A DNA stretch of 23,775 nucleotides from a virus (Duplodnaviria > Heunggongvirae > Uroviricota > Caudoviricetes): IMG/VR virus record IMGVR_UViG_2541047805_000001; one strand, written 5' to 3'. A program made the translations under genes and the position numbers. Below are positions 5,543-23,775 of this stretch, piece after piece. The notes below the pieces were generated by a model, which saw only the letters and a list, made by a program, of their open reading frames with translations, ran no database searches and was not told where the DNA came from. Position 1 is the stretch's first letter. Each line of letters opens with the position of its first letter.

Positions 5543-5543
5543 A

Positions 5544-5699: not shown

Positions 5700-5779
5700 G
5701 CTGACCTCATTTCCCCTTAACGCTGGGGTAGCGGAACTGTTTGCTGAGAACACCGTGCGGTGTGTTGATGCAAACAAGA

Positions 5780-5831: not shown

Positions 5832-5865
5832 AATTGATGTGGTAAAAGATAACTCATTGATGATG

Positions 5866-6273: not shown

Positions 6274-6356
6274 AGTTAGCTAATGCTAAATCGTATTGAC
6301 TATGTTTTTGTTAACATCTATCTTGTTAGTTATGACTAACAATAAAGGTGTTTTAA
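6274..6356. promoter_or_regulatory. dicA/dicC divergent promoter-operator region
   Basis: 83-bp intergenic region with perfect palindrome TTAGCTAA (6275-6288 context) and inverted repeat TGTTAGTtatgACTAACA (6324-6341). TTGACT-like -35 at 6295-6300. Confidence 0.55.
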
Positions 6357-6587
6357 ATGCTTAAAACTGACGCTCTTTTGTATTTCGGTTCAAAAACAAA
6401 ACTTGCACAAGCAGCAGGTATTCGTTTGGCTTCGCTTTATAGCTGGAAAGGGGATTTAGTTCCCGAAGGTCGCGCGATGCGTCTACAGGAGGCATCTGGC
6501 GGGGAGCTTCAGTATGATCCCAAAGTTTATGATGAATATCGTAAGACGAAGCGGGCGGGGCGGTTGAACAATGAAAATCACTCCTGA
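6357..6587 (+). CDS. dicC: DicC, Cro-like regulator (76 aa)
   Basis: MLKTDALLYFGSKTKLAQAAGIRLASLYSWKGDL..., 76 aa, divergent from dicA. Matches recalled DicC. Confidence 0.85.
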   Translation: MLKTDALLYFGSKTKLAQAAGIRLASLYSWKGDLVPEGRAMRLQEASGGELQYDPKVYDEYRKTKRAGRLNNENHS

Positions 6588-6972
6588 ACAGGCTCGTGAG
6601 GCTCTGGATGCCTGGATATGTCGACCAGGAATGACACAGGAGCAGGCGACGATATTAATCACTGAAGCATTCTGGGCTTTGAAAGAGCGCCCGAACATCG
6701 ATGTTCAGCGTGTCACATATGAAGGTGGCGCGATTGATCAGCGAGCGCTTGGCGTTAATCGAGTGAAGATATTTGAACGCTGGAAGGCTATCGACACCAG
6801 GGATAAGCGTGAAAAGTTCACGGCGCTAGTGCCTGCAATTATGGAGGCTAAAGACACTGGGCATCGAGCCAATCCATGCCAACAGCCCGCAGGCAAAAGG
6901 GCGGGTAGAGCGCGCCAATCAGACACTACAGGACAGGCTGGTCAAAGAAATGCGGCTTCAGAATATCAGTGA
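6571..6972 (+). CDS. ydfX: YdfX-like ORF whose 3' part runs out of frame into a transposase remnant
   Basis: Start overlaps the dicC stop. N-terminal ~95 aa look protein-like. After about 6860 the frame is an out-of-frame read of the transposase fragment. Confidence 0.35.
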   Translation: MKITPEQAREALDAWICRPGMTQEQATILITEAFWALKERPNIDVQRVTYEGGAIDQRALGVNRVKIFERWKAIDTRDKREKFTALVPAIMEAKDTGHRANPCQQPAGKRAGRARQSDTTGQAGQRNAASEYQ

Positions 6973-7492
6973 TATTGAAACAGCAAATGCATGGTTGCCG
7001 ACCTTTATTGAAGCCTATAACAACCGGTTCGCTACGTCGCCTCGTACTACTGATAATGCTCATCTTGATGTGCACCATTCTGAAGAGGAACTGGGTTATA
7101 TCTTCAGCCTACAGGCGAAGCGCGTTCTGTCTAAAAATCTCACTTTCCAGTACAAAAGCAGTGCGTTTCAGGTACGCAGTGAGGGCCGGGGATATCGACT
7201 TAGGCATTCGGTTGTTACTGTATGCGAGAACTTTGACGGTGAAATTAACGTTCTGTATGACGGGAAAGCGCTGGGCTGGGAAAAGTATGTTGATGGCCCG
7301 GAGCCTATACCACTGGATGATGAAAAGAGTGTCCATGAACGAGTGGATAATGCCCGTATTGATTTACGCTCAAAATACTATGTTAAACCTAAAGCTGACC
7401 ATCCCTGGCTTACGCGCCGAACGCAAAGTCATCAGCAAGTTAAGCCCCCGAAGTTACCTAAAAAGAAGCCTGATCCCGATAAAAAAGATTGA
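6860..7492 (+). pseudogene. C-terminal fragment of a DDE (rve-type) transposase/integrase; equivalent of K-12 intK/ydfW
   Basis: Frame-2 translation from about 6860 reads GIEPIHANSPQAKGRVERANQTLQDRLVKEMRL..., a conserved DDE-transposase motif. No N-terminal part or start codon. ORF 6950..7492 is the tail of this frame. Confidence 0.6.
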
Positions 7493-7887
7493 AACCAAGA
7501 TCGATTCGGTTGAGTGCATATCCATTCATAGGGTAGATTCTTAAGTCGCGTTTCTGGTGTTCATTTTCGGGTGGTTTGTTACTTGTTTTACCGGGGATAT
7601 GCCAGAAACGCGCTGAGTCAGTCTGGGCGGTGCGCGTAATGAGGCGTTATGGTAAATAGCCTATGCTAATGTCCGCTAAGAGCAAGAAGCGGAAGTTGGC
7701 AGTTTTGTGGACTGTCCCCACAAAAGTGACTACAGAAATAGTTGCAATTCATAATTGATCATGGGTTGTCAGTTAAACTCGTGGCGATTTAAATAGACTA
7801 ATTGGGAGTGCGTCCATTACTTATATCTTGTAATGTTAACTATCAGAAATGATACAAAGATAATATGTCTTTAAAGAAAAGGCTGAT

Positions 7888-7915
7888 GGCGAAAAGTGGC
7901 CCGATGAGGGCCACA
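7888..7915 (-). terminator. Rho-independent terminator downstream of flxA
   Basis: Palindrome GTGGCCCgatgaGGGCCAC (7897-7915) followed on the minus strand by a U-rich run, just past the flxA stop. Confidence 0.5.
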
Positions 7916-7928
7916 ATACGGCTGTCAC

Positions 7929-8261
7929 TTAGACGTAAATATCAATGGTGCCAGCGGTATTTGTATCGTCTTTTTTCTCTTCTTTTTTATCAGGCTGAAC
8001 TGTCGCGTCTTCATTCTTTTTCTCTGCCTGCTGCCTTAACAACTGCTCCAGTTGAGCCCAGAGGCTTTCAATTTGCTTCTGTACCAATGCAGCCATTTCT
8101 TTTTTCTGCTGTGTCGTCATCCCCTCTTCCGATGAGATTTTCCCAAGCTTTTCAGTCAGCACCTGAATTTGTCTTGTGATTTTGGCTATTTCTGATGTTC
8201 CTTCCGGGGCGGAGTTGTTTGAAATAACGGTTGAGGTATTTCCCTGAATTGTGACAGACAT
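7929..8261 (-). CDS. flxA: FlxA, FliA-regulated protein (110 aa)
   Basis: MSVTIQGNTSTVISNNSAPEGTSEIAKITRQIQVLTEKLGK... matches recalled FlxA. Has its own sigma-28 promoter upstream. Confidence 0.85.
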   Translation of the reverse strand: MSVTIQGNTSTVISNNSAPEGTSEIAKITRQIQVLTEKLGKISSEEGMTTQQKKEMAALVQKQIESLWAQLEQLLRQQAEKKNEDATVQPDKKEEKKDDTNTAGTIDIYV

Positions 8262-8284
8262 AGATTTCTCCTTTTAAAAAAGCA

Positions 8285-8311
8285 CTATCGGCATGCACAA
8301 AAAAATCTTTA
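8285..8311 (-). promoter_or_regulatory. Sigma-28 (FliA) class promoter of flxA
   Basis: Minus strand reads TAAAGATT-N11-GCCGATAG against the sigma-28 consensus TAAAGTTT-N11-GCCGATAA. Placed about 25-50 nt upstream of the flxA start with a GGAG RBS between. Confidence 0.7.
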
Positions 8312-8463
8312 ATCGTATTTCTTGTGTCATTAATTGTTTGATGTTCAGATTGTTTTCCTCGCGGGCTGGCGCGCCTCAGAAAGTAAAGCTTGTTGACAGG
8401 GGTAAACGTTCGGCAATAATTTTCTGCCGCATGCGGGTGTTGCATAAAACGTGTTACGTTCCT

Positions 8464-8769
8464 TTATCGACAGGTCAGGTCACCGCTCACCCGCCGACGA
8501 GAAAGCAACACTGACATGCTAAAGCAAAAAATAGATGAATAAGTTGAGTTGTGCATATGTAGCCTGACCGTCACAAAGTATATGGTGTCTGTACCAGTAA
8601 GATGATGGCCGGACTCTTTAAAAACGAGCTGACCTGCACAATACAGGATGGACTTAGCAATGGCTGCTCCTGGCACAAAGCGGACAGTGATCACCGTTCT
8701 TACGACTACTTTCTGACTTCCTTCGTGACTTGCCCTAAGCATGTTGTAGTGCGATACTTGTAATGACAT
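8464..8769 (-). CDS. ydfV: YdfV-like hypothetical protein (101 aa); coding status uncertain
   Basis: ORF length matches recalled K-12 ydfV. No convincing RBS, odd composition, and the 5' end overlaps the relBE promoter/operator. Confidence 0.35.
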   Translation of the reverse strand: MSLQVSHYNMLRASHEGSQKVVVRTVITVRFVPGAAIAKSILYCAGQLVFKESGHHLTGTDTIYFVTVRLHMHNSTYSSIFCFSMSVLLSRRRVSGDLTCR

Positions 8770-8782
8770 TTGTAATTACAAG
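8757..8782 (+). promoter_or_regulatory. relBE operator (relO) inverted repeat
   Basis: CTTGTAATgacatttgtaATTACAAG palindrome immediately upstream of the relB RBS (AGAGGTG). Confidence 0.6.
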
Positions 8783-8793
8783 AGGTGTAAGAC

Positions 8794-9033
8794 ATGGGTA
8801 GCATTAACCTGCGTATTGACGATGAACTTAAAGCGCGTTCTTACGCCGCGCTTGAAAAAATGGGTGTAACTCCTTCTGAAGCGCTTCGTCTCATGCTCGA
8901 GTATATCGCTGACAATGAACGCTTGCCGTTCAAACAGACACTCCTGAGTGATGAAGATGCTGAACTTGTGGAGATAGTGAAAGAACGGCTTCGTAATCCT
9001 AAGCCAGTACGTGTGACGCTGGATGAACTCTGA
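8794..9033 (+). CDS. relB: RelB antitoxin (79 aa)
   Basis: MGSINLRIDDELKARSYAALEKMGVTPSEALRLMLEYIADNERLPF... matches recalled RelB at all but one residue (A18, recalled V). Confidence 0.95.
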   Translation: MGSINLRIDDELKARSYAALEKMGVTPSEALRLMLEYIADNERLPFKQTLLSDEDAELVEIVKERLRNPKPVRVTLDEL

Positions 9034-9320
9034 TGGCGTATTTTCTGGATTTTGACGAGCGGGCACTAAAGGAATGGCGAAAGCTGGGCTCGACGGTACG
9101 TGAACAGTTGAAAAAGAAGCTGGTTGAAGTACTTGAGTCACCCCGGATTGAAGCAAACAAGCTCCGTGGTATGCCTGATTGTTACAAGATTAAGCTCCGG
9201 TCTTCAGGCTATCGCCTTGTATACCAGGTTATAGACGAGAAAGTTGTCGTTTTCGTGATTTCTGTTGGGAAAAGAGAACGCTCGGAAGTATATAGCGAGG
9301 CGGTCAAACGCATTCTCTGA
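9033..9320 (+). CDS. relE: RelE mRNA-interferase toxin (95 aa)
   Basis: MAYFLDFDERALKEWRKLGSTVREQLKKKLVEVLESPRIEANKLRGMPDCYKIKLRSSGYRLVYQVIDEKVVVFVISVGKRERSEVYSEAVKRIL. Start overlaps the relB stop. Confidence 0.95.
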   Translation: MAYFLDFDERALKEWRKLGSTVREQLKKKLVEVLESPRIEANKLRGMPDCYKIKLRSSGYRLVYQVIDEKVVVFVISVGKRERSEVYSEAVKRIL

Positions 9321-9391
9321 ACCAAAGCATGACATCTCTGTTTCGCACCGAAGGTGACACTTCTGCTTTGCGTTGACAGGAGAAGCAGGCT

Positions 9392-9547
9392 ATGAAGCAG
9401 CAAAAGGCGATGTTAATCGCCCTGATCGTCATCTGTTTAACCGTCATAGTGACGGCACTGGTAACGAGGAAAGACCTCTGCGAGGTACGAATCCGAACCG
9501 GCCAGACGGAGGTCGCTGTCTTCACAGCTTACGAACCTGAGGAGTAA
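9392..9547 (+). CDS. hokD: HokD (RelF) Hok-family membrane toxin (51 aa)
   Basis: Hand-translated MKQQKAMLIALIVICLTVIVTALVTRKDLCEVRIRTGQTEVAVFTAYEPEE. RBS AGGAGAAG at 9379-9386. Below the ORF-track cutoff. Confidence 0.85.
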   Translation: MKQQKAMLIALIVICLTVIVTALVTRKDLCEVRIRTGQTEVAVFTAYEPEE

Positions 9548-9615
9548 GAGACCCGGCGGGGGAGAAATCCCTCGCCACCTCTGATGTGGCAGGCATCCTC
9601 AACGCACCCGCACTT

Positions 9616-9645
9616 AACCCGCTTCGGCGGGTTTTTGTTTTTATT
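9616..9645 (+). terminator. Rho-independent terminator after relBE-hokD
   Basis: AACCCGCttcgGCGGGTT hairpin followed by TTTTGTTTTTATTTT. Confidence 0.7.
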
Positions 9646-9763
9646 TTCAACGCGTTTGAAGTTCTGGACGGTGCCGGAATAGAATCAAAAATACTTAAGT
9701 AGCGCGCAGGGATAAGAGGGATGGTCCCTTAAAGGGGAGAGCTAATTATCCGGAAGGATTCTG

Positions 9764-10015
9764 ATGATGAACATCGAAGAACTGCGTAAAATTTTTTGTG
9801 AAGATGGCCTCTATGCTGTGTGCGTTGAAAATGGAAATCTTGTTAGTCATTACCGCATTATGTGTTTGCGAAAGAATGGGGCTGCGTTAATTAATTTTGT
9901 GGATGCTCGGGTCACGGACGGATTTATCTTGCGCGAAGGTGAGTTTGTCACTTCATTACAGGCATTGAAAGAGATCGGAATAAAAGCTGGCTTTTCTGCT
10001 TTTTCAGGAGAATAA
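9764..10015 (+). CDS. rem: Rem (83 aa), function unknown
   Basis: MMNIEELRKIFCEDGLYAVCVENGNLVSHYRIMCLRKNGAALINFVDARV...; length and position match Qin rem. Confidence 0.75.
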   Translation: MMNIEELRKIFCEDGLYAVCVENGNLVSHYRIMCLRKNGAALINFVDARVTDGFILREGEFVTSLQALKEIGIKAGFSAFSGE

Positions 10016-10081
10016 ACTCATCTACAATCTTGCGCGGGGCTGAACTCCCGCTGAGTAACACCGTGCCACCGGAGAAAACCG

Positions 10082-10360
10082 ATGGCACGCAACGCAAAAT
10101 ATTACAATTCTGATAATTCGCCCGTTCTTGCCTGCACGCACGGGCGGTATTCTCACGCATTCAAGTCTGAATGGTTCCAGCACCCTCCATGCACTGCAGA
10201 ACAGGCCGAATGGCTGATTCATTCTTACCGCAGGCGCGGGTTCGAGGTTAAGAAAGCTCTCAGTCTCGACTATCGGCACTGGATAATCTCTGTCAGGCTG
10301 CCTTATTCCGAACGCCCACCACGTGCGTCCCGCACTTTCCAGCAACGGATCTGGAGGTAA
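10082..10360 (+). CDS. Candidate 92-aa ORF upstream of and translationally coupled to ydfU
   Basis: ATG preceded by GGAG with ~7-nt spacer. Stop TAA (10358-10360) lies inside the GGAGG RBS of ydfU. Region is GC-rich with ORFs on both strands, so this may be spurious. Confidence 0.3.
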   Translation: MARNAKYYNSDNSPVLACTHGRYSHAFKSEWFQHPPCTAEQAEWLIHSYRRRGFEVKKALSLDYRHWIISVRLPYSERPPRASRTFQQRIWR

Positions 10361-10361
10361 C

Positions 10362-11411
10362 GTGCGGGTATTACTTAGACCTGTTCTGGTGCCTGAGCTT
10401 GGGCTGGTGGTCCTTAAGCCGGGCCGTGAATCCATACAGATATTTCATAATCCTCGAGTGCTGGTGGAACCGGAACCAAAAAGCATGCGTAATCTGCCAT
10501 CCGGAGTCGTTCCTGCCGTTCGCCAGCCGCTGGCGGAAGACAAAACATTGCTGCCGTTTTTTAGTAACGAACGGGTGATTCGTGCTGCTGGCGGCGTTGG
10601 CGCATTGTCCGACTGGCTATTACGTCATGTTACATCCTGCCAGTGGCCTAATGGCGATTACCATCACACTGAAACAGTCATTCACCGTTATGGTACCGGC
10701 GCAATGGTGTTGTGCTGGCACTGCGACAACCAACTGCGTGACCAGACATCGGAATCACTGGAGCTGCTTGCTCAACAAAATCTGACAGCATGGGTGATTG
10801 ACGTCATCCGTCACGCAATAAGCGGTACGCAGGAGCGGGAATTATCTTTGGCTGAATTATCCTGGTGGGCGGTCTGCAATCAGGTGGTGGATGCACTACC
10901 TGAGGCTGTATCGCGTCGTTCGCTGGGATTACCAGCGGAAAAAATCTGCTCGGTGTACCGCGAAAGCGACATCGTACCGGGAGAGCAGACCGCCACCAGC
11001 ATATTGAAACAACGCACAAAAAATCTTGCACCGTTGCCTTACGCCCACCAGCAACAAAAATCACCACAGGAAAAGACGGTGGTAAGCATCACCGTTGATC
11101 CAGAGTCTCCGGAATCTTTCATGAAGCTGCCTAAACGTCGCCGCTGGGTTAAGGAGAAATACACACGTTGGGTTAAGACACAGCCGTGTGCTTGCTGCGG
11201 TATGCCAGCCGACGATCCGCATCATCTGATTGGTCACGGGCAGGGCGGAATGGGAACAAAAGCACATGATCTCTTTGTGTTGCCTTTGTGCAGAAAGCAT
11301 CACAACGAGCTGCATACGGATACAGTGGCATTTGAAGAGAAGTATGGCTCCCAACTGGAGCTGATATTTCGTTTTATCGATCGCGCGCTGGCAATTGGCG
11401 TACTGGCGTAA
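10362..11411 (+). CDS. ydfU: YdfU (DUF968-type, 349 aa) with C-terminal HNH-like zinc-finger nuclease motif
   Basis: GTG start at 10362 preceded by GGAGG gives 349 aa, matching recalled YdfU length. C-terminus has CACCGMPADDPHHLIGHG...LPLCRKHHNELH (Cys pairs plus HH...N...H). Confidence 0.75.
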   Translation: MRVLLRPVLVPELGLVVLKPGRESIQIFHNPRVLVEPEPKSMRNLPSGVVPAVRQPLAEDKTLLPFFSNERVIRAAGGVGALSDWLLRHVTSCQWPNGDYHHTETVIHRYGTGAMVLCWHCDNQLRDQTSESLELLAQQNLTAWVIDVIRHAISGTQERELSLAELSWWAVCNQVVDALPEAVSRRSLGLPAEKICSVYRESDIVPGEQTATSILKQRTKNLAPLPYAHQQQKSPQEKTVVSITVDPESPESFMKLPKRRRWVKEKYTRWVKTQPCACCGMPADDPHHLIGHGQGGMGTKAHDLFVLPLCRKHHNELHTDTVAFEEKYGSQLELIFRFIDRALAIGVLA

Positions 11412-11424
11412 GTGGAGAACGAGC

Positions 11425-12177
11425 ATGAACCTTGAAGCCTTACCAAAATATTACTCCCCAAAATCTCCAAAATTGAGCGATGACGCTCCAGCGACAGGCA
11501 CCGGTTGTTTAACAATTACGGATGTAATGGCAGCGCAGGGGATGGTGCAGTCGAAAGCACCACTTGGGTTGGCCTTATTTCTGGCAAAAGTTGGTGTTCA
11601 GGACCCTCAGTTTGCGATTGAAGGCCTGCTAAATTACGCGATGGCACTGGATAACCCGACATTGAACAAATTGAGTGAAGAAATCCGGTTACAGATTATT
11701 CCTTACCTCGTGAGTTTTGCCTTTGCTGATTACTCCAGGTCTGCGGCAAGTAAGGCTCGCTGTGAGCATTGTTCAGGTACGGGATTTTATAATGTATTGC
11801 GCGAAGTGGTGAAACACTACAGACGCGGGGAATCTGTAATCAAGGAAGAATGGGTGAAGGAACTATGTCAGCATTGCCATGGTAAGGGCGAAGCCAGCAC
11901 AGCGTGCAGAGGGTGTAAGGGTAAAGGGATTGTTCTGGATAAAAAAAGAACCCGGTTTCATGGCGTACCGGTATATAAGATTTGTGGGCGTTGTAATGGA
12001 AACCGGTTTAGTCGTTTACCGACCACGCTGGCACGACGTCATGTCCAGAAGCTGGTACCAGACCTGACCGATTATCAGTGGTATAAGGGGTATGCGGACG
12101 TCATTGGTAAACTGGTAACAAAGTGCTGGCAGGAAGAAGCATACGCGGAAGCGCAATTGAGGAAGGTGACGAGATAA
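11425..12177 (+). CDS. quuQ: Q-like late-gene antiterminator (250 aa)
   Basis: ATG at 11425 with GGAGAA upstream gives 250 aa. Several CxxC/HCH zinc-binding motifs (CEHCSGTG, CQHCHGKG, CRGCKGKG, CGRCNG). Followed by a promoter plus terminator pair as in lambda Q-pR'-tR'. Confidence 0.75.
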   Translation: MNLEALPKYYSPKSPKLSDDAPATGTGCLTITDVMAAQGMVQSKAPLGLALFLAKVGVQDPQFAIEGLLNYAMALDNPTLNKLSEEIRLQIIPYLVSFAFADYSRSAASKARCEHCSGTGFYNVLREVVKHYRRGESVIKEEWVKELCQHCHGKGEASTACRGCKGKGIVLDKKRTRFHGVPVYKICGRCNGNRFSRLPTTLARRHVQKLVPDLTDYQWYKGYADVIGKLVTKCWQEEAYAEAQLRKVTR

Positions 12178-12208
12178 ATGATTTTTGCTGAAGATGGCGA
12201 CATGATGT

Positions 12209-12237
12209 TTGCATTTTTCAAAAAATATGGATAAAAT
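12209..12237 (+). promoter_or_regulatory. pR'-like late promoter
   Basis: TTGCAT-N17-TAAAAT just downstream of quuQ and about 45 nt upstream of a strong terminator, the arrangement expected for Q-dependent antitermination. Confidence 0.5.
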
Positions 12238-12282
12238 TTTTTCAACGATGGGCTTTGTATACCCGACGTTAAGAAAAAGTAG

Positions 12283-12310
12283 AAAACCCGCTGATGAGCG
12301 GGTTTTGTGC
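12283..12310. terminator. Rho-independent terminator (tR'-like), probably bidirectional
   Basis: AAAACCCGCtgatgaGCGGGTTTT perfect hairpin flanked by A/T runs on both sides. Lies between quuQ (+) and the 3' end of cspF (-). Confidence 0.7.
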
Positions 12311-12598
12311 TTTAAATGGGGCAATGGTAATGTTGAATCTCATCCCGGGACTCATGTCTGTTAACTTATTATTTAGCTGGTGACTTGGTTATTTGCCTGA
12401 TGTTTAAAATGTTTTCTTCCAGTACAATGTCCCTAAACACAATGAGTCTGCTTATTATATTATTAGCAGAGCTATTACGGCCAAAGTACAGCATAAGCTT
12501 TTAAAGCCAATCAACCAGTCATCAAGACAGACGGGGTTATTCATAAAAACTCTCCATGTGTGATCCGATGGGGCCTGAAATTAAAGCTTTAATATAGC

Positions 12599-12811
12599 TC
12601 ATGAAAGGTAAACATTGGCAGCTGAAGGGCCACGCAGACCATTTATCCGGCAAAATTCCACGCGTAATCCGGTGGTAATTTCTTCTGCATCGCGGAGATT
12701 GAGCGCTGAAACATGAAGCTGGACATCGATACGACCATCGGATGGGGTGATAAGACCCTTGCCGCTTTTGCCGTCAAAGGTTTTGACAATTCCTGTCATT
12801 TTACGGGACAA
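12599..12811 (-). CDS. cspF: Cold-shock protein CspF (70 aa)
   Basis: [70 protein letters not shown]; CspA-family OB fold lacking the canonical RNP aromatic residues, as in CspF. Confidence 0.85.
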
Positions 12812-13111
12812 AAAAATTCCTTAATACTGATAACTTGGCGCACTATACACACGTTCCTGAAGAAAGCTATAGTTTTTTGATGGGGTTGAAGATGGCTGGA
12901 TGTCTAAAATAAACATTGCTTCATATGTTCAACTATGCGTTAATGATTGCGTCGGTTTGAAGAACAGACGATATACGAAGTAGTTTACTAAAGCAGTTCT
13001 CATTTCAGGTGTTATTCACTTATTCCTTCTTTGAGTCTCTCCAATTAAGTACGAAGTCGTTTCTGTTATGCAAACCATTTATGCCGAAAGGCTCAAGTTA
13101 AGGAATGTAGA

Positions 13112-13327
13112 ATGTCAAATAAAATGACTGGTTTAGTAAAATGGTTTAACGCTGATAAAGGTTTCGGCTTTATTTCTCCTGTTGATGGTAGTAAAGATGT
13201 GTTTGTGCATTTTTCTGCGATTCAGAATGATAATTATCGAACCTTATTTGAAGGTCAAAAGGTTACCTTCTCTATAGAGAGTGGTGCTAAAGGTCCTGCA
13301 GCAGCAAATGTCATCATTACTGATTAA
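13112..13327 (+). CDS. cspB: Cold-shock protein CspB (71 aa)
   Basis: [71 protein letters not shown], with RNP1/RNP2 motifs. Long 5' leader upstream. Confidence 0.9.
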
Positions 13328-13607
13328 AATTCATCGCTCGTCTGTATACGATAACGAAGAAGGCTGATGCCTGAGTAGAGATACGGACAGAGTAGTGAAT
13401 ATTGGATTTCTTTAATAAAAATTAAGGAGGTCCAATACATGAAACAATGGCCAGCATATTTGGCAAAATCTTAATCAGGAAAAGTATGCTAACCATTGTG
13501 GTGAAGTGCAGGTTTGCTGCATGAATAGTTTTACAGCAGAAGCTAACTGCTGGCATGGCAAAACAAAGTGCGTAAGTGGATGACTCCCACAAAAAGCACC
13601 ACAATCT

Positions 13608-13632
13608 CAAACCCGCTCAGGCGGGTTTTTTA
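13608..13632 (+). terminator. Rho-independent terminator downstream of cspB
   Basis: AACCCGCtcagGCGGGTT hairpin followed by TTTTTTATT. Confidence 0.65.
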
Positions 13633-13690
13633 TTATCTGCTTTAAATATATTATTAAAATATAAAAAATACTTGTTACTAATAAAATCAA

Positions 13691-13861
13691 TCAGGCTACA
13701 GCTTTAAGATTTGTCTGGAATACTTTGTTGCAATGAGGGCAGATCAAAAGGGCACCTTTTTGTACTCTTGAAAAACTGTGTTCTGACTCTTGGGTGCAGT
13801 TTGGGCAGGAACATTTAACGAGATAATTACGGCGTGATTTTGAGTCTTTACGTTCTGACAT
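13691..13861 (-). CDS. Small zinc-ribbon protein (56 aa)
   Basis: MSERKDSKSRRNYLVKCSCPNCTQESEHSFSRVQKGALLICPHCNKVFQTNLKAVA has a CxCPxC...CPHC motif. Start taken at the internal Met of ORF 13691..13912. May correspond to a small protein annotated in K-12 Qin, but I cannot confirm the name. Confidence 0.45.
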   Translation of the reverse strand: MSERKDSKSRRNYLVKCSCPNCTQESEHSFSRVQKGALLICPHCNKVFQTNLKAVA

Positions 13862-14080
13862 AGGCTTTTCCTGTATAAATGGCCGTATACAGTACACTAA
13901 ATATGAAAACATTTCTCGTATTATTATTTTATATATGACTTTCTTTCAAAATAATTACTCACATTTTTAATGTGTATGTTTCTTTAGCGCCGTTGAGAAC
14001 AGCGTGTGCTGTCAAAACTACCCCGTAGACTCCGATCTTTTCAAACATATTGCACCATCCGTGTACATCGGGGTGAGGAT

Positions 14081-14296
14081 ATGAAATCAATGGATAAGTT
14101 AACAACAGGTGTTGCCTATGGCACATCGGCGGGTAATGCTGGTTTCTGGGCATTGCAGTTACTCGATAAAGTAACTCCGTCACAGTGGGCTGCAATCGGT
14201 GTGCTGGGTAGCCTGGTTTTTGGCCTGCTGACGTATCTGACAAATCTTTATTTCAAGATTAAAGAAGACAGGCGTAAGGCTGCGAGAGGAGAGTAA
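14081..14296 (+). CDS. essQ: Phage-21-type pinholin, S21-like (71 aa) with dual-start motif
   Basis: [82 protein letters not shown]. Met1/Met4 dual start typical of S21 antiholin/holin. Confidence 0.85.
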
Positions 14297-14300
14297 TCCA

Positions 14301-14608
14301 ATGACTCAAGACTATGAACTGGTTGTGAAAGGAGTCCGTAATTTTGAGAATAAAGTTACGGTAACTGTAGCCTTACAGGACAAAGAACGCTTTGACGGTG
14401 AAATTTTTGACCTGGATGTCGCCATGGACCGTGTTGAAGGAGCTGCGCTGGAGTTTTATGAGGCAGCAGCCAGAAGGAGCGTCCGGCAAGTCTTCCTGGA
14501 AGTAGCAGAAAAATTGTCAGAAAAAGTTGAGTCTTATCTGCAGCATCAGTACTCCTTTAAGATTGAAAATCCTGCCAATAAGCACGAGCGTCCTCATCAT
14601 AAATATAT

Positions 14609-14612
<4 letters not shown>
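14301..14612 (+). CDS. ydfR: YdfR (103 aa), function unknown, inside the lysis cassette
   Basis: 103-aa ORF between holin and endolysin; start 4 nt after the essQ stop. Length and position match Qin ydfR. Confidence 0.7.
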
Positions 14613-15636
<1,024 letters not shown>

Positions 15637-15999
15637 GGTAATATTAAATCGGAACATTTACATCGCGGAATGTAAAATTTAAATAAAAAGGACTCTTCCA
15701 TGAGCCAAAATTCCTGAAATCTTAAGGGTAAGATAAAAGGTCTTAATCAGAATGACACGTTATTATTAATAAATAAAGCTATTCTTTCATTGCTGTGTTT
15801 TTCTTTACAAAAGTAATCCTTGCTATGGGTGGTTAATCATGCGTTAATGGTGTTCTGGTTTGTTACAAATTTATCTGAAGCAGTCATTGTTATAATTTTA
15901 TTATTTGTACCTCTTGAGATTTCCTTGTTGGTTTTTCTCTCTGATATTTTTTTTCGGACCATTCTGCCCAAGGGCTAATTTCTTCAAAAGGTAATAATT

Positions 16000-16212
16000 A
16001 TGTCTAACAAAATGACTGGTTTAGTGAAATGGTTTAACCCTGAAAAAGGTTTTGGTTTCATCACGCCGAAAGATGGCAGCAAAGATGTGTTTGTCCATTT
16101 CTCAGCAATTCAGAGCAACGATTTCAAAACATTAACTGAGAATCAGGAAGTTGAATTTGGTATTGAGAACGGACCTAAAGGTCCTGCCGCTGTTCATGTA
16201 GTGGCGCTTTGA
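16000..16212 (+). CDS. cspI: Cold-shock protein CspI (70 aa)
   Basis: [70 protein letters not shown]. Confidence 0.9.
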
Positions 16213-16414
16213 GGTAGACAATATTACAAACCATATTCACTTTAGATGCCCGTGTTGTCATGGTTCCCAGTATAGAACATCATCTTTTGATGTTTCTGAC
16301 ATGAATCCTTTCGGGGCAAAATGTATCTTTTGTAAATCAATGATGATTACATTTGATAATATTTCACAATACTTAAATGCCAGCCGTCTGTCGTTGGATT
16401 TAAAAAAGTGAAAA

Positions 16415-16440
16415 TGAAGGCTCCTTCGGGAGCTTTTTTG
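16415..16440 (+). terminator. Rho-independent terminator
   Basis: GGCTCCttcgGGAGC hairpin followed by TTTTTTG. Confidence 0.6.
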
Positions 16441-16558
16441 CTTGGTATCTATTCGATGGATACTCACATACTACGGTAACATCATGAAAAAAATCATAGT
16501 TTTTTTTAACTCTGAACCAGCAGTGGTAGTGCCAGCGATGACTGGAGTTAACACCATC

Positions 16559-16714
16559 ATGCGTGAATATCCAAATGGCGAAAAAACACACCTTACTGTA
16601 ATGGCCGCAGGGTTTCCATCTCTGACCGGAGATCATAAAGTCATTTATGTAGCCGCGGATCGACATGTTACTTCAGAAGAAATTCTGGAAGCAGCAATAA
16701 GGCTCTTGAGTTGA
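16559..16714 (+). CDS. ynfN: YnfN-like small protein (51 aa)
   Basis: MREYPNGEKTHLTVMAAGFPSLTGDHKVIYVAADRHVTSEEILEAAIRLLS (51 aa) matches the recalled YnfN length and its position between cspI and gnsB. Upstream in-frame starts exist (ATG 16484, TTG 16442); the true start is uncertain. Confidence 0.5.
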   Translation: MREYPNGEKTHLTVMAAGFPSLTGDHKVIYVAADRHVTSEEILEAAIRLLS

Positions 16715-16885
16715 TTTGATGCTATTGTATTGATAATTCAGGAAAATTCTCTTTGTCTGTTTGTGTAAAATTTAGACTATCGTATGTTGATTATTGCGAT
16801 GTTTCATCTTATCTTTTACACGTTTGCACCATATAATCGACTTACTGTGTAACTGGAAAGTCATAACAGACTAAAAGAGGAAATG

Positions 16886-17059
16886 ATGAATATTGAAAAC
16901 TTAAAAACAAAAGCAGAAGCAGATATTTCTGAATATATAACAAAAAAAATTATTGAACTTAAGAAAAAGACCGGGAAAGAAGTTACCAGTATTCAGTTTA
17001 CCGCACGGGAAAAAATGACGGGTCTTGAAAGCTATGATGTCAAGATTAATTTAATCTGA
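16886..17059 (+). CDS. gnsB: GnsB (57 aa), GnsA/GnsB family
   Basis: Hand-translated MNIENLKTKAEADISEYITKKIIELKKKTGKEVTSIQFTAREKMTGLESYDVKINLI. RBS AAAGAGGA. An alternative ATG lies one codon upstream (16883). Confidence 0.8.
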   Translation: MNIENLKTKAEADISEYITKKIIELKKKTGKEVTSIQFTAREKMTGLESYDVKINLI

Positions 17060-17085
17060 TGTATTCAATAATAAAATTTATCCAT

Positions 17086-17110
17086 AAACCTCGTTTTTAC
17101 GGGGTTTTGT
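17086..17110. terminator. Hairpin plus T-run between gnsB and ydfO
   Basis: AAACCTCGtttttaCGGGGTTTTGTT; could terminate either convergent gene. Confidence 0.45.
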
Positions 17111-17210
17111 TATATTTGAATGGTTCCGAATATCTAAATCACAATTGTTGATGGTTTTTATTAAACCAATGCAGTCCGGCTCAGGAGTGAGAGAAGCCGG
17201 ACGTTATGGT

Positions 17211-17621
17211 TTAGCGTGGTAAGATCTGTGTAGTTTTCTGGATGCTTTCAGTAAATAGTAATGAATTATCAAAGGTATAGTAATATCTTTTTTGTTCGTG
17301 GATATTTGTAACCCACCGAAAAACTCCTGCTTTAGCAAGGTTTCTTCTGTATTCCTGAAATGTGATCTCTCTGGATTTCAGCTTATTAGAGGTCGTTTCT
17401 ATAAGATGCCTATCCTTTGAAAATTTGACAGACACAATGTTTTTTAGGCCCTTTAATAACACTGTATTATCATTTTTTAATACAATATGAACATTCTCTG
17501 TGGCTAAATAGTAAATGTAATGTGAGACATTGTGACGTTTTAGCTCAGAATAAAACCATTGATAGTTTAAATCGTTTCGAACTTTATCAAATATTTGTTT
17601 AAAAATGACTACCTGATCCAT
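17211..17621 (-). CDS. ydfO: YdfO (DUF1398-like, 136 aa)
   Basis: ORF 17211..17636; the internal Met (MDQVVIFKQ...) gives 136 aa, matching recalled YdfO. Confidence 0.7.
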
Positions 17622-17678
17622 AGATAAACCTTCCATGTGATATGAGGGGGCGTAGTCTGCACGATTATCTAAATTGCT

Positions 17679-17912
17679 TCAATCTGGTCTGACCTGTTTT
17701 CTGAGCAATTCAGTAATGTCACTCTTTTCTTTGTTTGCTTCAGAAGAAACTCTTTTTTCTGAGCACAGTCTCCGGCGGCAGGCTTCAATGACCCAGGCTG
17801 AGAAATTCCCGGACCCTTTTTGCTCAAGAGCGATGTTAATTTGTTCAATCATTTGGTTAGGAAAGCGGATGTTGCGGGTTGTTGTTCTGCGGGTTCTGTT
17901 CTTCGTTGACAT
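17679..17912 (-). CDS. ynfO: YnfO (77 aa), function unknown
   Basis: MSTKNRTRRTTTRNIRFPNQMIEQINIALEQKGSGNFSAWVIEACRRRLCSEKRVSSEANKEKSDITELLRKQVRPD; basic N-terminus. Confidence 0.7.
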   Translation of the reverse strand: MSTKNRTRRTTTRNIRFPNQMIEQINIALEQKGSGNFSAWVIEACRRRLCSEKRVSSEANKEKSDITELLRKQVRPD

Positions 17913-18039
17913 GAGGTTGCCCCGTATTCAGTGTCGCTGATTTGTATTGTCTGAAGTTGTTTTTACGTTAAGTTGATGCAGATCAATTAATACGATACCT
18001 GCGTCATAATTGATTATTTGACGTGGTTTGATGGCCTCC

Positions 18040-18300
18040 ACGCACGTTGTGATATGTAGATGATAATCATTATCACTTTACGGGTCCTTTCCGGTGATCC
18101 GACAGGTTACGGGGCGGCGACCTCGCGGGTTTTCGCTATTTATGAAAATTTTCCGGTTTAAGGCATTTCCGTTCTTCTTCGTCGTAACTTAATGTTTTTA
18201 TTTAAAATACCCCCTGAAAAGAAAGGAAACGACAGGTGCTGAAAACGAGCTTTTTGGCCTCTGTCGTTTCCTTTCTCTGTTTTTGTCCGTGGAATGAACA
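18040..18300 (+). other. Lambda-type cos site (cosQ-cosN-cosB) immediately upstream of the Nu1 homolog
   Basis: ...GATCCGACAGGTTACG|GGGCGGCGACCTCGCGGGTTTTCGCTATTTATGAAAATTTTCCGGTTTAAGG... is near-identical to the joined right and left ends of phage lambda as I recall them. The 12-nt cohesive-end sequence GGGCGGCGACCT lies at 18110-18121. Confidence 0.8.
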
Positions 18301-18882
18301 ATGGAAGTCAACAAAAAGCAGCTGGCTGACATTTTCGGTGCGAGTATCCGTACCATTCAGAACTGGCAGGAACAGGGAATGCCCGTTCTGCGAGGCGGTG
18401 GCAAGGGTAATGAGGTGCTTTATGACTCTGCCGCCGTTATAAAATGGTATGCCGAAAGGGATGCTGAAATTGAGAACGAAAAGCTGCGCCGGGAGGTTGA
18501 AGAACTGCGGCAGGCCAGCGAGGCAGATCTCCAGCCAGGGACTATTGAGTACGAACGCCATCGACTTACGCGTGCGCAGGCCGACGCACAGGAACTGAAG
18601 AATGCCAGAGACTCCGCTGAAGTGGTGGAAACCGCATTCTGTACTTTCGTGCTGTCGCGGATCGCAGGTGAAATTGCCAGTATTCTCGACGGGATCCCCC
18701 TGTCGGTGCAGCGGCGTTTTCCGGAACTGGAAAACCGACATGTTGATTTCCTGAAACGGGATATCATCAAAGCCATGAACAAAGCAGCCGCGCTGGATGA
18801 ACTGATATTGGAGCGCTGCCAACGACTGGAGGGACTATTTCAGGTCCGTTGTCTGTTACTGATGGGATCACCGGGGCACTGA
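18301..18882 (+). CDS. nohQ: Terminase small subunit Nu1 homolog, C-terminally truncated and fused to unrelated sequence
   Basis: First ~170 aa ([77 protein letters not shown]...[10 protein letters not shown]) match my recollection of lambda Nu1 closely. The tail ([24 protein letters not shown]) is non-homologous read-through. Confidence 0.85.
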
Positions 18883-19895
18883 AGGGGAACGCCGATACCG
18901 CGACGAAACTTGCGGCAGCCCCAAAAATTAACGGTGTTAAGTTTGATGGCTCGGCGGATATTAACCTCACGCCGGAAAATATTGGTGCATTTGCCCGACG
19001 TTCGACGGGGGCTTATGCGGATTCGGATGGAGCCGTTCCCTGGAATGCCGAATCAGGCGCTTACAATGTCACCCGCTCTGGCAACAGCTATATTCTGGTT
19101 AACTTCTATACCGGAGTCGGAAGTTGCCGGACCTTGCAGATGAAGGCACATTACAGAAATGGAGGTCTGTTCTACCGTTCCTCAAGAGATGGCTATGGTT
19201 TTGAGGAAGACTGGGCAGAAGTTTATACCTCGAAAAATCTTCCACCAGAAAGCTACCCAGTCGGCGCACCAATCCCGTGGCCATCAGATACCGTTCCGTC
19301 TGGTTATGCCCTGATGCAGGGGCAGACTTTTGACAAATCTGCTTACCCGAAACTTGCAGCCGCTTATCCGTCAGGTGTGATCCCTGATATGCGTGGCTGG
19401 ACGATTAAGGGCAAACCTGCCAGTGGTCGGGCCGTATTGTCTCAGGAACAGGACGGCATTAAATCGCACACCCACAGCGCCAGCGTATCCAGTACGGATT
19501 TGGGGACGAAAACCACATCGTCGTTTGATTACGGCACTAAATCCACGAATAACACTGGTGCGCATACCCATAGTGTTAGCGGTACGGCTGCTTCAGCCGG
19601 TGCACATACCCATTCGATGACATTTGTTTCAGGTGGTTCCAGTGGTGCTCCGGGAAGTGGATCACCTGATTATTCTAAATACAGTGTTAACACTTCTTCT
19701 GCAGGCGCTCATACGCACTCTGTATCGGGTACTGCTGCAAGCGCAGGTGCACACGCACATACTGTCGGTATTGGTGCTCATACGCACTCCGTTGCGATTG
19801 GTTCACATGGACATACCATCACCGTTAACGCTGCTGGTAACGCGGAAAATACCGTCAAAAACATCGCATTTAACTATATTGTGAGGCTTGCGTAA
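18801..19895 (+). CDS. stfQ: Side tail fibre protein, C-terminal fragment (open frame from 18801; first TTG at 18849)
   Basis: Frame opens right at the Nu1 junction with no credible start. Contains repeated GAHTHS motifs typical of Stf-family fibres. Followed by a tail-fibre assembly gene. Confidence 0.75.
19555..19810 (+). repeat. Degenerate in-frame coding repeats (GAHTHS(V)[10 protein letters not shown] units) within stfQ
   Basis: Recurrent ggtgc(g/a)cat/cac acc/acg cat/cac agt/tcc units encoding the motif about six times. Confidence 0.6.
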
Positions 19896-20470
19896 TGGCA
19901 TTCAGAATGAGTGAACAACCACGGACCATAAAAATTTATAATCTGCTGGCCGGAACTAATGAATTTATTGGTGAAGGTGACGCATATATTCCGCCTCATA
20001 CAGGTCTGCCAGCAAACAGTACCGATATTGCACCGCCAGATATTCCGGCAGGCTTCGTGGCTGTTTTCAACAGTGATGAGGCATCGTGGCATCTCGTTGA
20101 AGATCATCGGGGTAAAACGGTTTATGACGTGGCTTCCGGCGACGCGTTATTTATTTCTGAACTCGGTCCGTTACCGGAAAATGTTACCTGGTTATCGCCG
20201 GAAGGGGAGTTTCAGAAGTGGAACGGCACAGCCTGGGTGAAAGATGCAGAAGCAGAAAAACTGTTCCGGATCCGAGAGGCGGAAGAAACAAAAAACAGCC
20301 TGATGCAGGTAGCCAGTGAGCATATTGCGCCACTTCAGGATGCTGTAGATCTGGAAATCGCAACGGAGGAAGAAACCTCATTGCTGGAAGCCTGGAAAAA
20401 GTATCGGGTGTTGCTGAACCGTGTTGATACGTCAACTGCACAGGATATTGAATGGCCAGCACTGCCGTAG
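19895..20470 (+). CDS. tfaQ: Tail fibre assembly protein (191 aa)
   Basis: Start overlaps the stfQ stop (TAATG). 191 aa, matching the Tfa family length and the position after stf. Confidence 0.8.
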
Positions 20471-21474: not shown

Positions 21475-21708
21475 TTACATTTTACCATTTAAATTTTGGT
21501 TGTCTTTAAGAACTGATATCGCTGTTTGTAATAATTCTTTGTTATCCAGCCATGATTTTTTCTTTATGTTTCCTTCAATGTAATCAAGCAATGTTCTGGT
21601 ATTGATAGGTCTTCCCTGTTTTGCTACTTCCACTACAGCATCCCCTAGGATAATTCTTACTTCAGGAAGCTGCGCAGGGAACCACTTTAGGGTGTCTTTT
21701 GATTTCAT
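21475..21708 (-). CDS. ydfK: YdfK/YnaE-family small protein (77 aa), cold-shock-induced in K-12
   Basis: Internal Met of ORF 21475..21741 gives MKSKDTLKWFPAQLPEVRIILGDAVVEVAKQGRPINTRTLLDYIEGNIKKKSWLDNKELLQTAISVLKDNQNLNGKM (77 aa). Confidence 0.7.
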   Translation of the reverse strand: MKSKDTLKWFPAQLPEVRIILGDAVVEVAKQGRPINTRTLLDYIEGNIKKKSWLDNKELLQTAISVLKDNQNLNGKM

Positions 21709-22491
21709 GAAGATATTCCTTAAAATATTATTGATTTTCATTGCGATATTGTATGTCTGATTCAGGATATGTTGACTTATACATCGGTTTTGTCTGGGTT
21801 ATTGGATATGCCAATCCCTAATTTTATTAGGGCATGACTAAAAATGCTGAATATGATAAGGAGAGAAGTGATTATCAGTATGCTGTTCATATAGCCTCGA
21901 ATTAGTAATGTGTTATATATGATATAGTTGACAATTTTATCTTGGGTGTTCTTAAAGTTCGTAGATAAACATTGTCGTTTCAGGTATACAGGAATGCTAA
22001 CAGGTGGCGGCAAAAATCAGGCGGTTTATGGCGCAATCTGAAGTGGCAACTGCAAACTATCTTATGCAGAGACTCTACACGGATTGGGTTTAAAAGTATA
22101 CATAGATAACAGTTTTTATCTGAAGAAGAAAAATATCAAGGTGATATAGCCTATATGCCTTTGATGTGGAGGAATGAATGTGATGGGAGTGATGTATCTG
22201 AATAGTTGAAAAACCGCAGACACACCTTATGCAAGAACGTGCTGCGGTTGGCTGGTAAATTTTTCGATAGTGCGAGTATTGAATGATTTCCAGCCGTTAT
22301 TGATTTTACGCGTAAATCCATGAAAAAACTACTTATCTGTTGGGGAGTTTTTTGGGGCATATATGGGACAGAAATAGGCCCCAGATAGACACTGAGATCG
22401 AACTTAGGATGCTTTTAAAAAAATGCAACTATCTGAAAAAACCTAGAAAACGCCAAGGAAACCACAGGATGGGAAAAAACACCTGTGAATT

Positions 22492-23775
22492 ATGGATTTC
22501 CAGTTATATTCGCTCGGCGCAGCGTTAGTGTTTCATGAAATATTTTTTCCTGAATCATCAACGGCAATGGCGTTAATTCTGGCAATGGGAACCTACGGTG
22601 CAGGTTATGTGGCGCGTATTGTCGGAGCATTTATTTTCGGCAAAATGGGCGACAGAATAGGGCGTAAAAAAGTGCTCTTTATTACCATCACCATGATGGG
22701 GATCTGTACCACCTTAATTGGTGTGTTACCGACCTATGCACAGATTGGTGTTTTTGCACCCATCTTGCTGGTGACGTTGCGTATTATTCAGGGGTTGGGT
22801 GCAGGTGCGGAAATTTCCGGTGCCGGTACGATGCTGGCGGAATATGCGCCAAAAGGTAAGCGCGGAATTATCTCCTCATTTGTGGCTATGGGAACTAACT
22901 GCGGAACCTTGAGCGCAACGGCAATCTGGGCCTTTATGTTCTTCATTCTCAGTAAAGAGGAACTGCTGGCGTGGGGATGGCGTATACCGTTCCTGGCGAG
23001 CGTTGTCGTGATGGTCTTTGCTATCTGGTTGCGTATGAATCTGAAAGAAAGCCCGGTCTTTGAGAAGGTTAACGACAGTAACCAACCGACAGCAAAACCT
23101 GCACCTGCTGGTAGCATGTTCCAGAGCAAATCCTTCTGGCTGGCAACAGGGCTGCGTTTTGGTCAGGCGGGTAACTCCGGGTTAATTCAGACTTTCCTTG
23201 CAGGCTATTTAGTGCAGACGTTATTGTTTAACAAAGCAATTCCAACAGATGCATTGATGATCAGTTCGATTCTCGGCTTTATGACCATTCCGTTCCTTGG
23301 TTGGTTATCCGATAAAATTGGTCGCCGGATCCCGTATATTATTATGAATACCTCCGCGATTGTGCTGGCATGGCCAATGCTTTCTATCATTGTAGATAAA
23401 AGCTATGCCCCGAGCACCATTATGGTTGCACTGATTGTGATTCATAACTGTGCGGTGCTGGGATTATTTGCTCTGGAAAACATTACCATGGCAGAAATGT
23501 TCGGCTGTAAAAACCGCTTTACCCGGATGGCTATTTCTAAAGAAATTGGTGGTCTTATCGCTTCCGGTTTTGGTCCTATCCTGGCGGGTATTTTCTGCAC
23601 CATGACGGAATCCTGGTATCCGATCGCCATTATGATCATGGCATATTCAGTGATTGGTTTAATCTCTGCGCTGAAAATGCCAGAGGTGAAAGACCGTGAT
23701 TTAAGTGCGCTGGAAGACGCTGCGGAAGATCAACCGCGTGTTGTAAGAGCTGCGCAACCTTCCAGAAGTCTGTAA
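22492..23775 (+). CDS. ydfJ: MFS (metabolite:H+ symporter family) transporter, 5'-truncated by prophage insertion; host gene at the prophage boundary
   Basis: 427-aa ORF with multiple TM segments and MFS motifs (GKMGDRIGRKK; GWLSDKIGRR). The ORF begins within the first TM region, so it appears N-terminally truncated. Codon usage and GC differ from the adjacent AT-rich prophage end. Confidence 0.8.
   Translation: MDFQLYSLGAALVFHEIFFPESSTAMALILAMGTYGAGYVARIVGAFIFGKMGDRIGRKKVLFITITMMGICTTLIGVLPTYAQIGVFAPILLVTLRIIQGLGAGAEISGAGTMLAEYAPKGKRGIISSFVAMGTNCGTLSATAIWAFMFFILSKEELLAWGWRIPFLASVVVMVFAIWLRMNLKESPVFEKVNDSNQPTAKPAPAGSMFQSKSFWLATGLRFGQAGNSGLIQTFLAGYLVQTLLFNKAIPTDALMISSILGFMTIPFLGWLSDKIGRRIPYIIMNTSAIVLAWPMLSIIVDKSYAPSTIMVALIVIHNCAVLGLFALENITMAEMFGCKNRFTRMAISKEIGGLIASGFGPILAGIFCTMTESWYPIAIMIMAYSVIGLISALKMPEVKDRDLSALEDAAEDQPRVVRAAQPSRSL

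Follow-up and report, generated by a model that had tools for sequence, protein, structure and literature searches.

The Qin cryptic prophage of Escherichia coli K-12 was reportedly defined in 1983 via lambda qin111 hybrids, and lambda terminase is said to have been found in 1992 to cut the K-12 chromosome at the cos of cryptic prophages, in the same work that named nohA and nohB. In K-12, intQ is inactive and the Qin prophage does not excise (PMC3105296). Another K-12 prophage, DLP12, lacks head and tail genes but has an intact lambda-type cosQ-cosN-R3-R2-R1 array beside a Nu1 homolog (nohD). Recombination events between lambda and DLP12 cluster beside cos, the recombinant-phage background is ~1e-6 to 1e-4 per phage, and the nu1 and lysis genes of DLP12 are functional in lambda (De Paepe et al., PMC3945230). 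A prophage cos can also be used by the terminase of an infecting phage of the same specificity, which starts there, packages the adjoining bacterial DNA and stalls, producing a tailless, inactive particle (Feiss et al. 2015, PMC4669245). Starting at a prophage cos reduces the yield of viable progeny, and the productive helper packaging of passive prophages requires both an upstream and a downstream cos, an arrangement provided by tandem prophages, whose two cos sites lie about one genome length apart (PMC4669245). PICIs are chromosomal, encode an integrase, carry lambda-like cosQ and cosN sequences and rely on the terminase and capsids of a helper; they lack the lambda cosB and have an R3-like site of their own, their Rpp protein binds the helper TerS and redirects packaging, and they are induced by lytic growth of the helper (PMC9026076).

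The locus analyzed here lies in a stretch of DNA of 23,775 nt (the window, a term used below for the whole stretch at its full length). Its lambda-type cos is not new: it is that of the Qin cryptic prophage of E. coli, present here in the copy of another strain. The window resembles DLP12 in the arrangement of the cos sub-sites beside a Nu1 homolog and in the loss of head and tail genes. However, DLP12 is a distinct prophage with a different integration site and immunity; its nohD is full length and is followed by a fragment of A, and its cosB has other polymorphisms than that of the window, namely TG at bp 53-54 and A instead of T at bp 87 (lambda numbering). With PICIs the window shares the chromosomal location, the integrase, the cosQ and cosN sequences and the reliance on the terminase and capsids of a helper, but not the private R3-like site, the Rpp protein or the induction by a helper. 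PICIs replicate autonomously and are ~10-15 kb in length, and neither trait was seen in the window. As in the passive prophages, the cos of the window is a repressed chromosomal site of matching specificity, but it is a single one, the situation that leads to a stalled tailless particle.

A Qin-type prophage inserted in ydfJ

The window was colinear with annotated prophages at the E. coli Qin locus (ydfJ, between rspB and ydfI), with identities of 99.4-99.97%; taken as a whole, it was 99.4-99.6% identical to such prophages in E. coli genomes. In these relatives the layout is rspB, a 5′ stub of ydfJ, attL, int and the rest of the prophage, attR, ydfJ′ and ydfI; the window ends in the 3′ portion of ydfJ. 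Its left part contains int, xis, exo, ydfD, dicB, DicF, ydfC/B/A, dicA, dicC and ydaT′, followed further on by flxA, relBE and hokD. From hokD onward the order is rem, ydfU, Q, cspF/B, the lysis genes, cspI, gnsB, ydfO, ynfO and cos, to the right of which lie nohA′, stf′, tfaQ, pinQ, ydfK, attR and ydfJ′. The gene set characteristic of Qin (dicB/DicF/dicA/dicC, relBE, hokD, cspB/F/I, ydfO, ynfO, nohA, tfaQ and pinQ) is present, and the DicF RNA and two cspA-type leaders were found with Rfam. The recombination genes and the attachment site contained in the window are the following:

1-1314, minus strand: int, intact ORF (Pfam Arm-DNA-bind_2 and Phage_integrase)
1334-1585, minus strand: xis, intact ORF (Pfam DUF1233 excisionase)
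22490-22500, plus strand: attR core, TTATGGATTTC, where the 3′ portion of ydfJ begins; an identical core is found at the attP junction of phage PhiR42_1 (see below)

An initial annotation of this DNA, made from its letters alone, had described int and xis as intact. Both are indeed full ORFs with their Pfam domains, the last codon of int being altered. The position of the attL core, deduced from the relatives, is ~18-28 bp to the left of window position 1 and therefore outside the window. The element measures 22,518 bp (~22.5 kb) from core to core, which agrees with the earlier statement that a monomer does not reach the minimum length that lambda packages.

The Qin prophage of K-12 lies at the same locus, in ydfJ, has the same ydfO-ynfO-cos-nohA-stf′-tfaQ-pinQ order, and is 99.67% identical to the window over positions 13998-18807. 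Its cosQ and cosN are identical to those of the window, and its cosB has the same five changes relative to lambda. The two copies differ, however, in that the deletion in K-12 ends at Nu1 codon ~176 rather than at codon 169, and was an independent event. The window has kept a longer stf fragment than K-12 Qin, and its int, xis and exo are intact, while K-12 Qin shows two additional T-to-G changes in the vicinity of R1 and of the start of nohA.

The cos site and the adjacent Nu1 remnant

Window positions 17750-18807 could be aligned to lambda 48141-48502 plus 1-697 in a single alignment of 1059 columns, with 98.7% identity, 13 mismatches and one 1-bp gap. The joined lambda ends, GATCCGACAGGTTACG followed by GGGCGGCGACCTCGCGGGTTTTCGC, correspond to window positions 18096-18136; the junction between lambda 48502 and 1 falls between 18111 and 18112, within the 18100-18125 segment where the initial annotation had located it. 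The cosQ and cosB regions that it had reported nearby were also recognized, with these sub-sites:

18082-18088, plus strand: GGGTCCT, the heptamer that we take to be cosQ; aligned with lambda 48473-48479, from which it differs neither in its letters nor in its distance to cosN
18110-18125, plus strand: cosN, formed by the 12-bp cohesive end GGGCGGCGACCT (18112-18123) plus 2 bp on each flank; 100% identity to lambda
18161-18176, plus strand: cosB R3 (lambda bp 50-65); motif at 18164-18175 with one mismatch, G54A, at 18165
18177-18215, no strand assigned: R3-R2 interval, with the IHF site I1 placed by homology; A73G (18184) and T102C (18213)
18216-18231, minus strand: cosB R2 (lambda bp 105-120), in the opposite orientation to R3 and R1; exact match at 18220-18231
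18265-18280, plus strand: cosB R1 (lambda bp 155-170); exact match at 18265-18276

Between window positions 17776 and 18164 (lambda 48167 to bp 53) there were zero differences from lambda, so that cosQ, cosN and the distance from cosN to R3 are identical in both. According to the 16-bp definition of cosN and its nick positions (PMC9026076), nicks are predicted between 18111 and 18112 in the top strand, and between 18123 and 18124 in the bottom strand; cosQ is required for the termination of packaging (PMC4669245).

The differences from lambda in cosB were G54A (18165), A73G (18184), T102C (18213), G134A (18245) and the loss of G138 (at 18249). The 'handful' of substitutions mentioned in the initial annotation thus corresponds to four substitutions and one 1-bp deletion. 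The order R3(+)-I1-R2(-)-R1(+) is kept and there is no indel between lambda bp 1 and bp 137. The alignment revealed neither changes at the nick sites nor the loss of any R site, the only change within an R site being that at bp 54 of R3. The R2-R1 spacer, which includes G134A, lacks 1 bp relative to reference lambda; this shorter spacer was present in all nine of the other sequences aligned, reference lambda being the outlier in having the extra G138. The other four cosB changes, G54A excepted, are common among deposited phages, and both A73G and T102C were found in Kati, PhiR34_1, 2H10, an Stx1 phage and PhiR42_1. A chance match to cos was rejected in view of the 1059 bp aligned at 98.7% identity and of the cosN 17-mer, which occurs a single time in the window with a chance expectation of 0.01. 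Only one cos was found in the 23.8 kb of the window. Judging from its sequence, this cos is complete, has the packaging specificity of lambda and should serve as a competent substrate for a terminase of lambda specificity.

The small terminase gene next to cos is incomplete:

18301-18882, plus strand: nohA-type Nu1 (small terminase) remnant, 193 aa; Pfam Phage_Nu1 over residues 1-164 (E=1e-100)

Residues 1-169 of this protein (NohA′) are those of lambda Nu1 except for L132I (168/169 identical), and only three nucleotides differ between nohA′ and lambda nu1. The last 12 of the 181 residues of Nu1 are replaced by 24 unrelated ones. The DNA-binding N-terminus is therefore kept, as initially proposed, but it is not the only part to survive, since 169 of the 181 residues remain. 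The C-terminal ~40 residues of TerS have been proposed to form the TerL-binding domain (PMC9026076). As the altered C-terminus of NohA′ falls within this segment, its proposed TerL-binding domain is damaged, probably to the detriment of that function. The window contains no remaining gene for the large terminase, the portal, the capsid or the tail shaft.

A complete phage closely related to the window

Escherichia phage PhiR42_1 (PV340562; 48,668 bp; listed host, ECOR13) has a complete Qin-type lambda-like genome. The identity between the window and PhiR42_1 was 99.96% over window positions 1-6850, which include int and xis, and 99.69% over positions 6849-18807; the immunity regions showed 2 mismatches in 6.85 kb. 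PhiR42_1 shares with the window the att core, the immunity region and all five cosB changes, including the rare A54. It differs from the window in two more T-to-G changes, near R1 and near the start of nohA, and in having the entire Qin gene order plus a replication region, with a gene annotated as replication protein O. It also has Nu1, A, W, B, C, D, E, FI, FII, Z, U, V, G, T, H, M, L, K, I, J, lom, stf and tfa. Relative to this phage, the window is short of ~25 kb.

The PhiR42_1 record is permuted across attP, in such a way that the sequence corresponding to the right arm of the window (21478-22500) is joined to that of the left arm (position 1 onward) via TTATGGATTTC. This indicates that an excised or encapsidated form of PhiR42_1 was sequenced. 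Given how little the int and xis of the window differ from their PhiR42_1 counterparts, it also suggests that the att/int system may be functional. A literature search found no paper describing PhiR42_1; from its deposition as a complete genome, its named host and its attP-permuted sequence, we infer it to be a viable phage. The Qin cosB allele, including G54A in R3, is thus carried, according to the deposited sequence, by a complete phage.

Two deletions separate the window from a complete phage

Comparison with PhiR42_1 and with the complete prophage of E. coli 14EC017 showed the window to correspond to a complete PhiR42_1-like phage minus two deletions. The deletion junctions, and the tail-fibre genes that follow the second of them, are located as follows:

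6849-6850, no strand assigned: junction of a 4.3-kb deletion, placed by comparison with PhiR42_1 and relatives
18804-18807, no strand assigned: junction of a ~21.0-kb deletion that starts at Nu1 codon 169 (lambda bp 697), ends at stf codon ~674 and shows a 4-bp microhomology (GATA)
18808-20470, plus strand: stf, C-terminal third only, up to 19895 and in a different frame from nohA′; intact tfa (19895-20470)

The 4.3-kb deletion took the part of ydaT coding for the C-terminus, the putative replication protein O gene, the DUF977 and methyltransferase genes and part of an ISNCY remnant; around 6849/6850, Pfam recognized only a Cro-like protein, a repressor and an N-terminal YdaT fragment. The ~21.0-kb deletion took A, every head gene, all those for the tail shaft and tip, and lom, along with the final 12 codons of Nu1 and two-thirds of stf. 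The absence of the large terminase subunit and of the head and tail-shaft genes, noted in the initial annotation, is therefore real, but not all tail genes have been lost, since the C-terminal third of stf and the intact tfa persist; Collar, Phage_fiber and Caudo_TAP domains were detected by Pfam in these tail-fibre remnants.

The junction of the ~21.0-kb deletion was present in none of 5,426 complete E. coli genomes, which points to a rare and presumably recent event. A 33-mer spanning it had no matches in IMG/VR (2.9 million viral contigs) or in the GTDB species representatives, although with such limited sampling its absence from virions or from other contexts is a weak negative. The 33-mer was found in two gut metagenome contigs, both of which match the window on the sides that they cover; one of them crosses attR into ydfJ. 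In one of the two contigs bp 54 is a G, as in lambda, which means that even copies sharing this deletion vary at that position. In other strains the deletions have independent endpoints, located within W (strain 789) or within A (strain P15-25), in addition to that of K-12 mentioned above.

The cos site was retained because cosN lies 697 bp to the left of the point where the ~21-kb deletion started, and the 99.7% identity to a complete phage implies that it has not had time to decay. On these grounds, its retention would call for no special explanation. As to selection on cos or nohA, the relatives differ by just 2-5 positions across cos, and nohA differs from lambda by three, numbers that are too small to be informative; furthermore, the relatives were retrieved with cos-containing queries, a biased sample that leaves the comparison powerless to exclude selection for cos retention.

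Probable fate of the retained cos and alternative explanations

The cos in the window is likely to be that of a ydfJ-inserted Qin-type lambdoid prophage, passively preserved in a recently degraded copy. The ancestor would have been a complete phage of ~48.7 kb resembling PhiR42_1. An illegitimate deletion of ~21 kb would have removed the segment between Nu1 codon 169 and mid-stf, and a second one, of 4.3 kb, the replication region. If a heteroimmune phage of lambda specificity were to grow in the cell, its TerS, together with IHF, could assemble on R3-I1-R2-R1, and its TerL would nick cosN at the two predicted positions, 18111/18112 and 18123/18124. The resulting double-strand end might recombine with the phage, which would generate hybrid phages bearing the Qin late region and cos. 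Alternatively, packaging might proceed rightward across nohA′, stf′, tfa, pinQ and attR and then enter ydfJ and host DNA; in the absence of a second cos in the remaining 5.7 kb of the window, the head would fill and the motor would stall, leaving a tailless, non-infectious particle. Considering that initiation at a prophage cos (PMC4669245) and recombination beside cos (PMC3945230) have both been published, the site is probably a passive relic that can still be cleaved, cos-stimulated recombination with lambdoid phages and occasional abortive packaging being the realistic outcomes. The sequence comparisons showed which cos sub-sites are present and that they are complete, how the deletions are laid out and how closely this copy is related to K-12 Qin and PhiR42_1; cleavage, recombination and abortive packaging at its cos are what we infer.

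Passive preservation of a cleavable site has to be weighed against the idea that G54A turned cos into an inert fossil by inactivating initiation at R3, the most critical TerS site. With R3 taken as bp 50-65, this change is internal to it, at a nucleotide that all three R sequences share, and it alters the CGTTTCC motif common to R3, R2 and R1. Mutations in R3 give the strongest phenotype and the distance between cosN and R3 is critical (PMC9026076), and among ~82 phage records with this cos only that of PhiR42_1 shows G54A. However, bp 54 is just outside the core contacted by TerS (bp 55-63) and is not one of the positions (bp 56, 58 and 59) at which packaging mutations are known (PMC9026076). 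Variation at bp 53-54 occurs in deposited phages (TG in 2H10 and in the Stx1 phage), PhiR42_1, a complete phage, has A54 together with the same cosB, and neither cosQ nor cosN, the pair sufficient for termination, is altered. Inactivation of the site is hence regarded as very unlikely. It could also be imagined that cos and NohA′ were both kept because they interfere with infecting phages, cos acting as a decoy for terminase and proheads and NohA′ poisoning the TerS complexes of the helper, loosely like the Rpp of PICIs. NohA′ indeed keeps residues 1-169 (DNA binding and self-association) almost unchanged and loses the extreme C-terminus alone; the NohA of K-12 was independently truncated ~7 codons further on; initiation at a prophage cos cuts viable progeny (PMC4669245), and Rpp proteins that bind TerS have been described (PMC9026076). 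Nevertheless, a single chromosomal cos would face hundreds of phage cos copies, so any decoy effect should be negligible. In addition, nohA is full length in other copies at the Qin locus, whether or not these have a fragment of terminase A, which means that the truncation is not conserved, and the three nucleotide differences between nohA′ and lambda nu1 are too few to test for selection. An interference function is accordingly considered very improbable.

The initial annotation had regarded the element as a candidate for helper-mediated cos packaging, like a satellite or cosmid. Spelled out further here, Int and Xis would excise a 22.5-kb circle and a helper of lambda specificity would package a head-to-tail dimer (45.0 kb, 93% of the length of lambda). 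There is an intact set of cos sub-sites, int and xis are complete ORFs almost the same as in the attP-permuted PhiR42_1 record, and lambda packages DNA of ~38-51 kb, a range in which a dimer of the 22,518-bp core-to-core unit would fall. The content of the window does not fit this proposal, however. A cosmid-like substrate has two cos sites in the same orientation 38-51 kb apart; the window has one, and no mechanism for making dimers is encoded. With the replication region deleted, no replication module of the satellite or PICI kind remains, so there is no route to concatemers and rolling-circle multimers would not be made. No device for redirecting packaging (an Rpp-type protein, a TerS of its own or a capsid-size factor) and no satellite-type, helper-sensing regulator was found in the window; there is only the Nu1 remnant, and cosB is helper-specific, not private. 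Rightward packaging would leave 18.1 of the 22.5 kb upstream of cos, and from the integrated element just 4.4 kb would enter the head. The immunity region is nearly identical to that of PhiR42_1, implying that the closest natural helper would meet repression when it infects. In the databases searched, the junction was seen neither in virions nor in more than one genomic context: it was absent from the IMG/VR contigs and present only in the two contigs matching the window, one of them chromosomal through attR. K-12 Qin does not excise, though its int is defective (PMC3105296). Mobilization by a helper is thus very improbable, and the satellite or cosmid interpretation is weak. The same applies, with even less credence, to the notion of an excisable Qin derivative moved occasionally by heteroimmune phages of lambda specificity as a 45-kb head-to-tail recombination dimer, a length close to ideal for filling a lambda head, or to the related one of NohA′ as a dominant-negative TerS.

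If dimer transfer did occur, half-length degraded lambdoid prophages would act as accidental cosmids able to spread relBE, hokD, dicB/DicF and csp genes. Packaging of such relics as dimers would be a minor added route of gene transfer, for which this analysis found no support. As a passive relic, the site adds little beyond bookkeeping, since the retention of cos in the cryptic prophages Qin and DLP12 of K-12 has long been known, as have its consequences, namely recombination with infecting lambdoid phages to give hybrids and the abortive initiation of packaging. Useful by-products of the analysis are the clean reconstruction of this Qin copy from a complete PhiR42_1-like phage via two deletions, the occurrence of the Qin cosB allele, with its rare G54A, in a complete phage, and the finding that it has, unlike K-12 Qin, intact int and xis genes.

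Deletion endpoints relative to cos

The inspection of Qin- and DLP12-type relics (DLP12 being another cryptic prophage of K-12) showed that all five deletions compared, those of the window and of loci L001, L004, L011 and L015, were independent and started to the right of cos. Two of them started in A, one in W and two in Nu1, at codon 169 and near codon 176. This arrangement is suggestive of cos retention, but the relics compared for their endpoints had been found with cos-containing queries, and the apparent pattern is therefore not interpretable.

Bp 54 (lambda numbering) in the cosB site R3 (window 18165) is A in the window, in K-12 Qin and in PhiR42_1, a complete Qin-type phage. A gut metagenome contig (L014) with the identical deletion junction has G instead; bp 54 is thus polymorphic within the deletion lineage, either by mutation or by gene conversion.

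Immediately to the left of cos lies ynfO (window 17679–17912, minus strand), a DUF3950 gene of the YlcI/YnfO family. Its lambda homolog is intact (64 codons; lambda 48109–48303, minus strand) and is missing from the NC_001416 annotation. The N-terminal 49 residues of the two proteins are identical, and their C-termini part at window 17750, where the lambda homology ends.

Comparison with complete and partial Qin relatives

PhiR42_1 (PV340562), from the phage collection, is a complete 'live Qin' phage of 48.7 kb, its record being permuted across attP. Its cargo includes relBE, hokD, dicA/dicC, csp genes and pinQ. No publication on this phage was found in the literature.

The stf fragment of the window is a mosaic (18808–19253 and 19583–19703). 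The segment 18804–19150 showed 100% identity to many E. coli prophage tail fibre genes, while identity of the fragment to strain 789, which carries a Qin-locus prophage, and to PhiR42_1 was only 85–96%. K-12 Qin gave no megablast match to the fragment before window 19254.

In the replication region, a 4.3-kb deletion (junction at window 6849–6850) joined ydaT, cut back to its first ∼93 codons, to a remnant ISNCY transposase; a SAM methyltransferase, DUF977 and a gene whose PhiR42_1 counterpart is annotated as replication protein O were lost. In P15-25, another strain with a Qin-locus prophage, the same region was hit by a different, smaller deletion.

Sequence comparison showed a run of four T at window 24–27, where strain 789, P15-25 and PhiR42_1 each have five. 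Read on the minus strand, the shorter run shifts the last int codon, and the protein ends in ...AMKINLIFIK* (at window 1–3) instead of ...AMKN*. The difference may be genuine and private to the window, or an error in sequencing the homopolymer; the altered end falls past the catalytic domain.

Structured RNAs

A search of the window for structured RNAs with Rfam identified the following:

4773–4824, minus strand, DicF sRNA, in the dicB-ydfC interval
12951–13343, plus strand, cspA-type thermoregulator leader, preceding cspB
15854–16239, plus strand, cspA-type thermoregulator leader, preceding cspI
20238–20436, plus strand, IS009 RNA, within tfaQ
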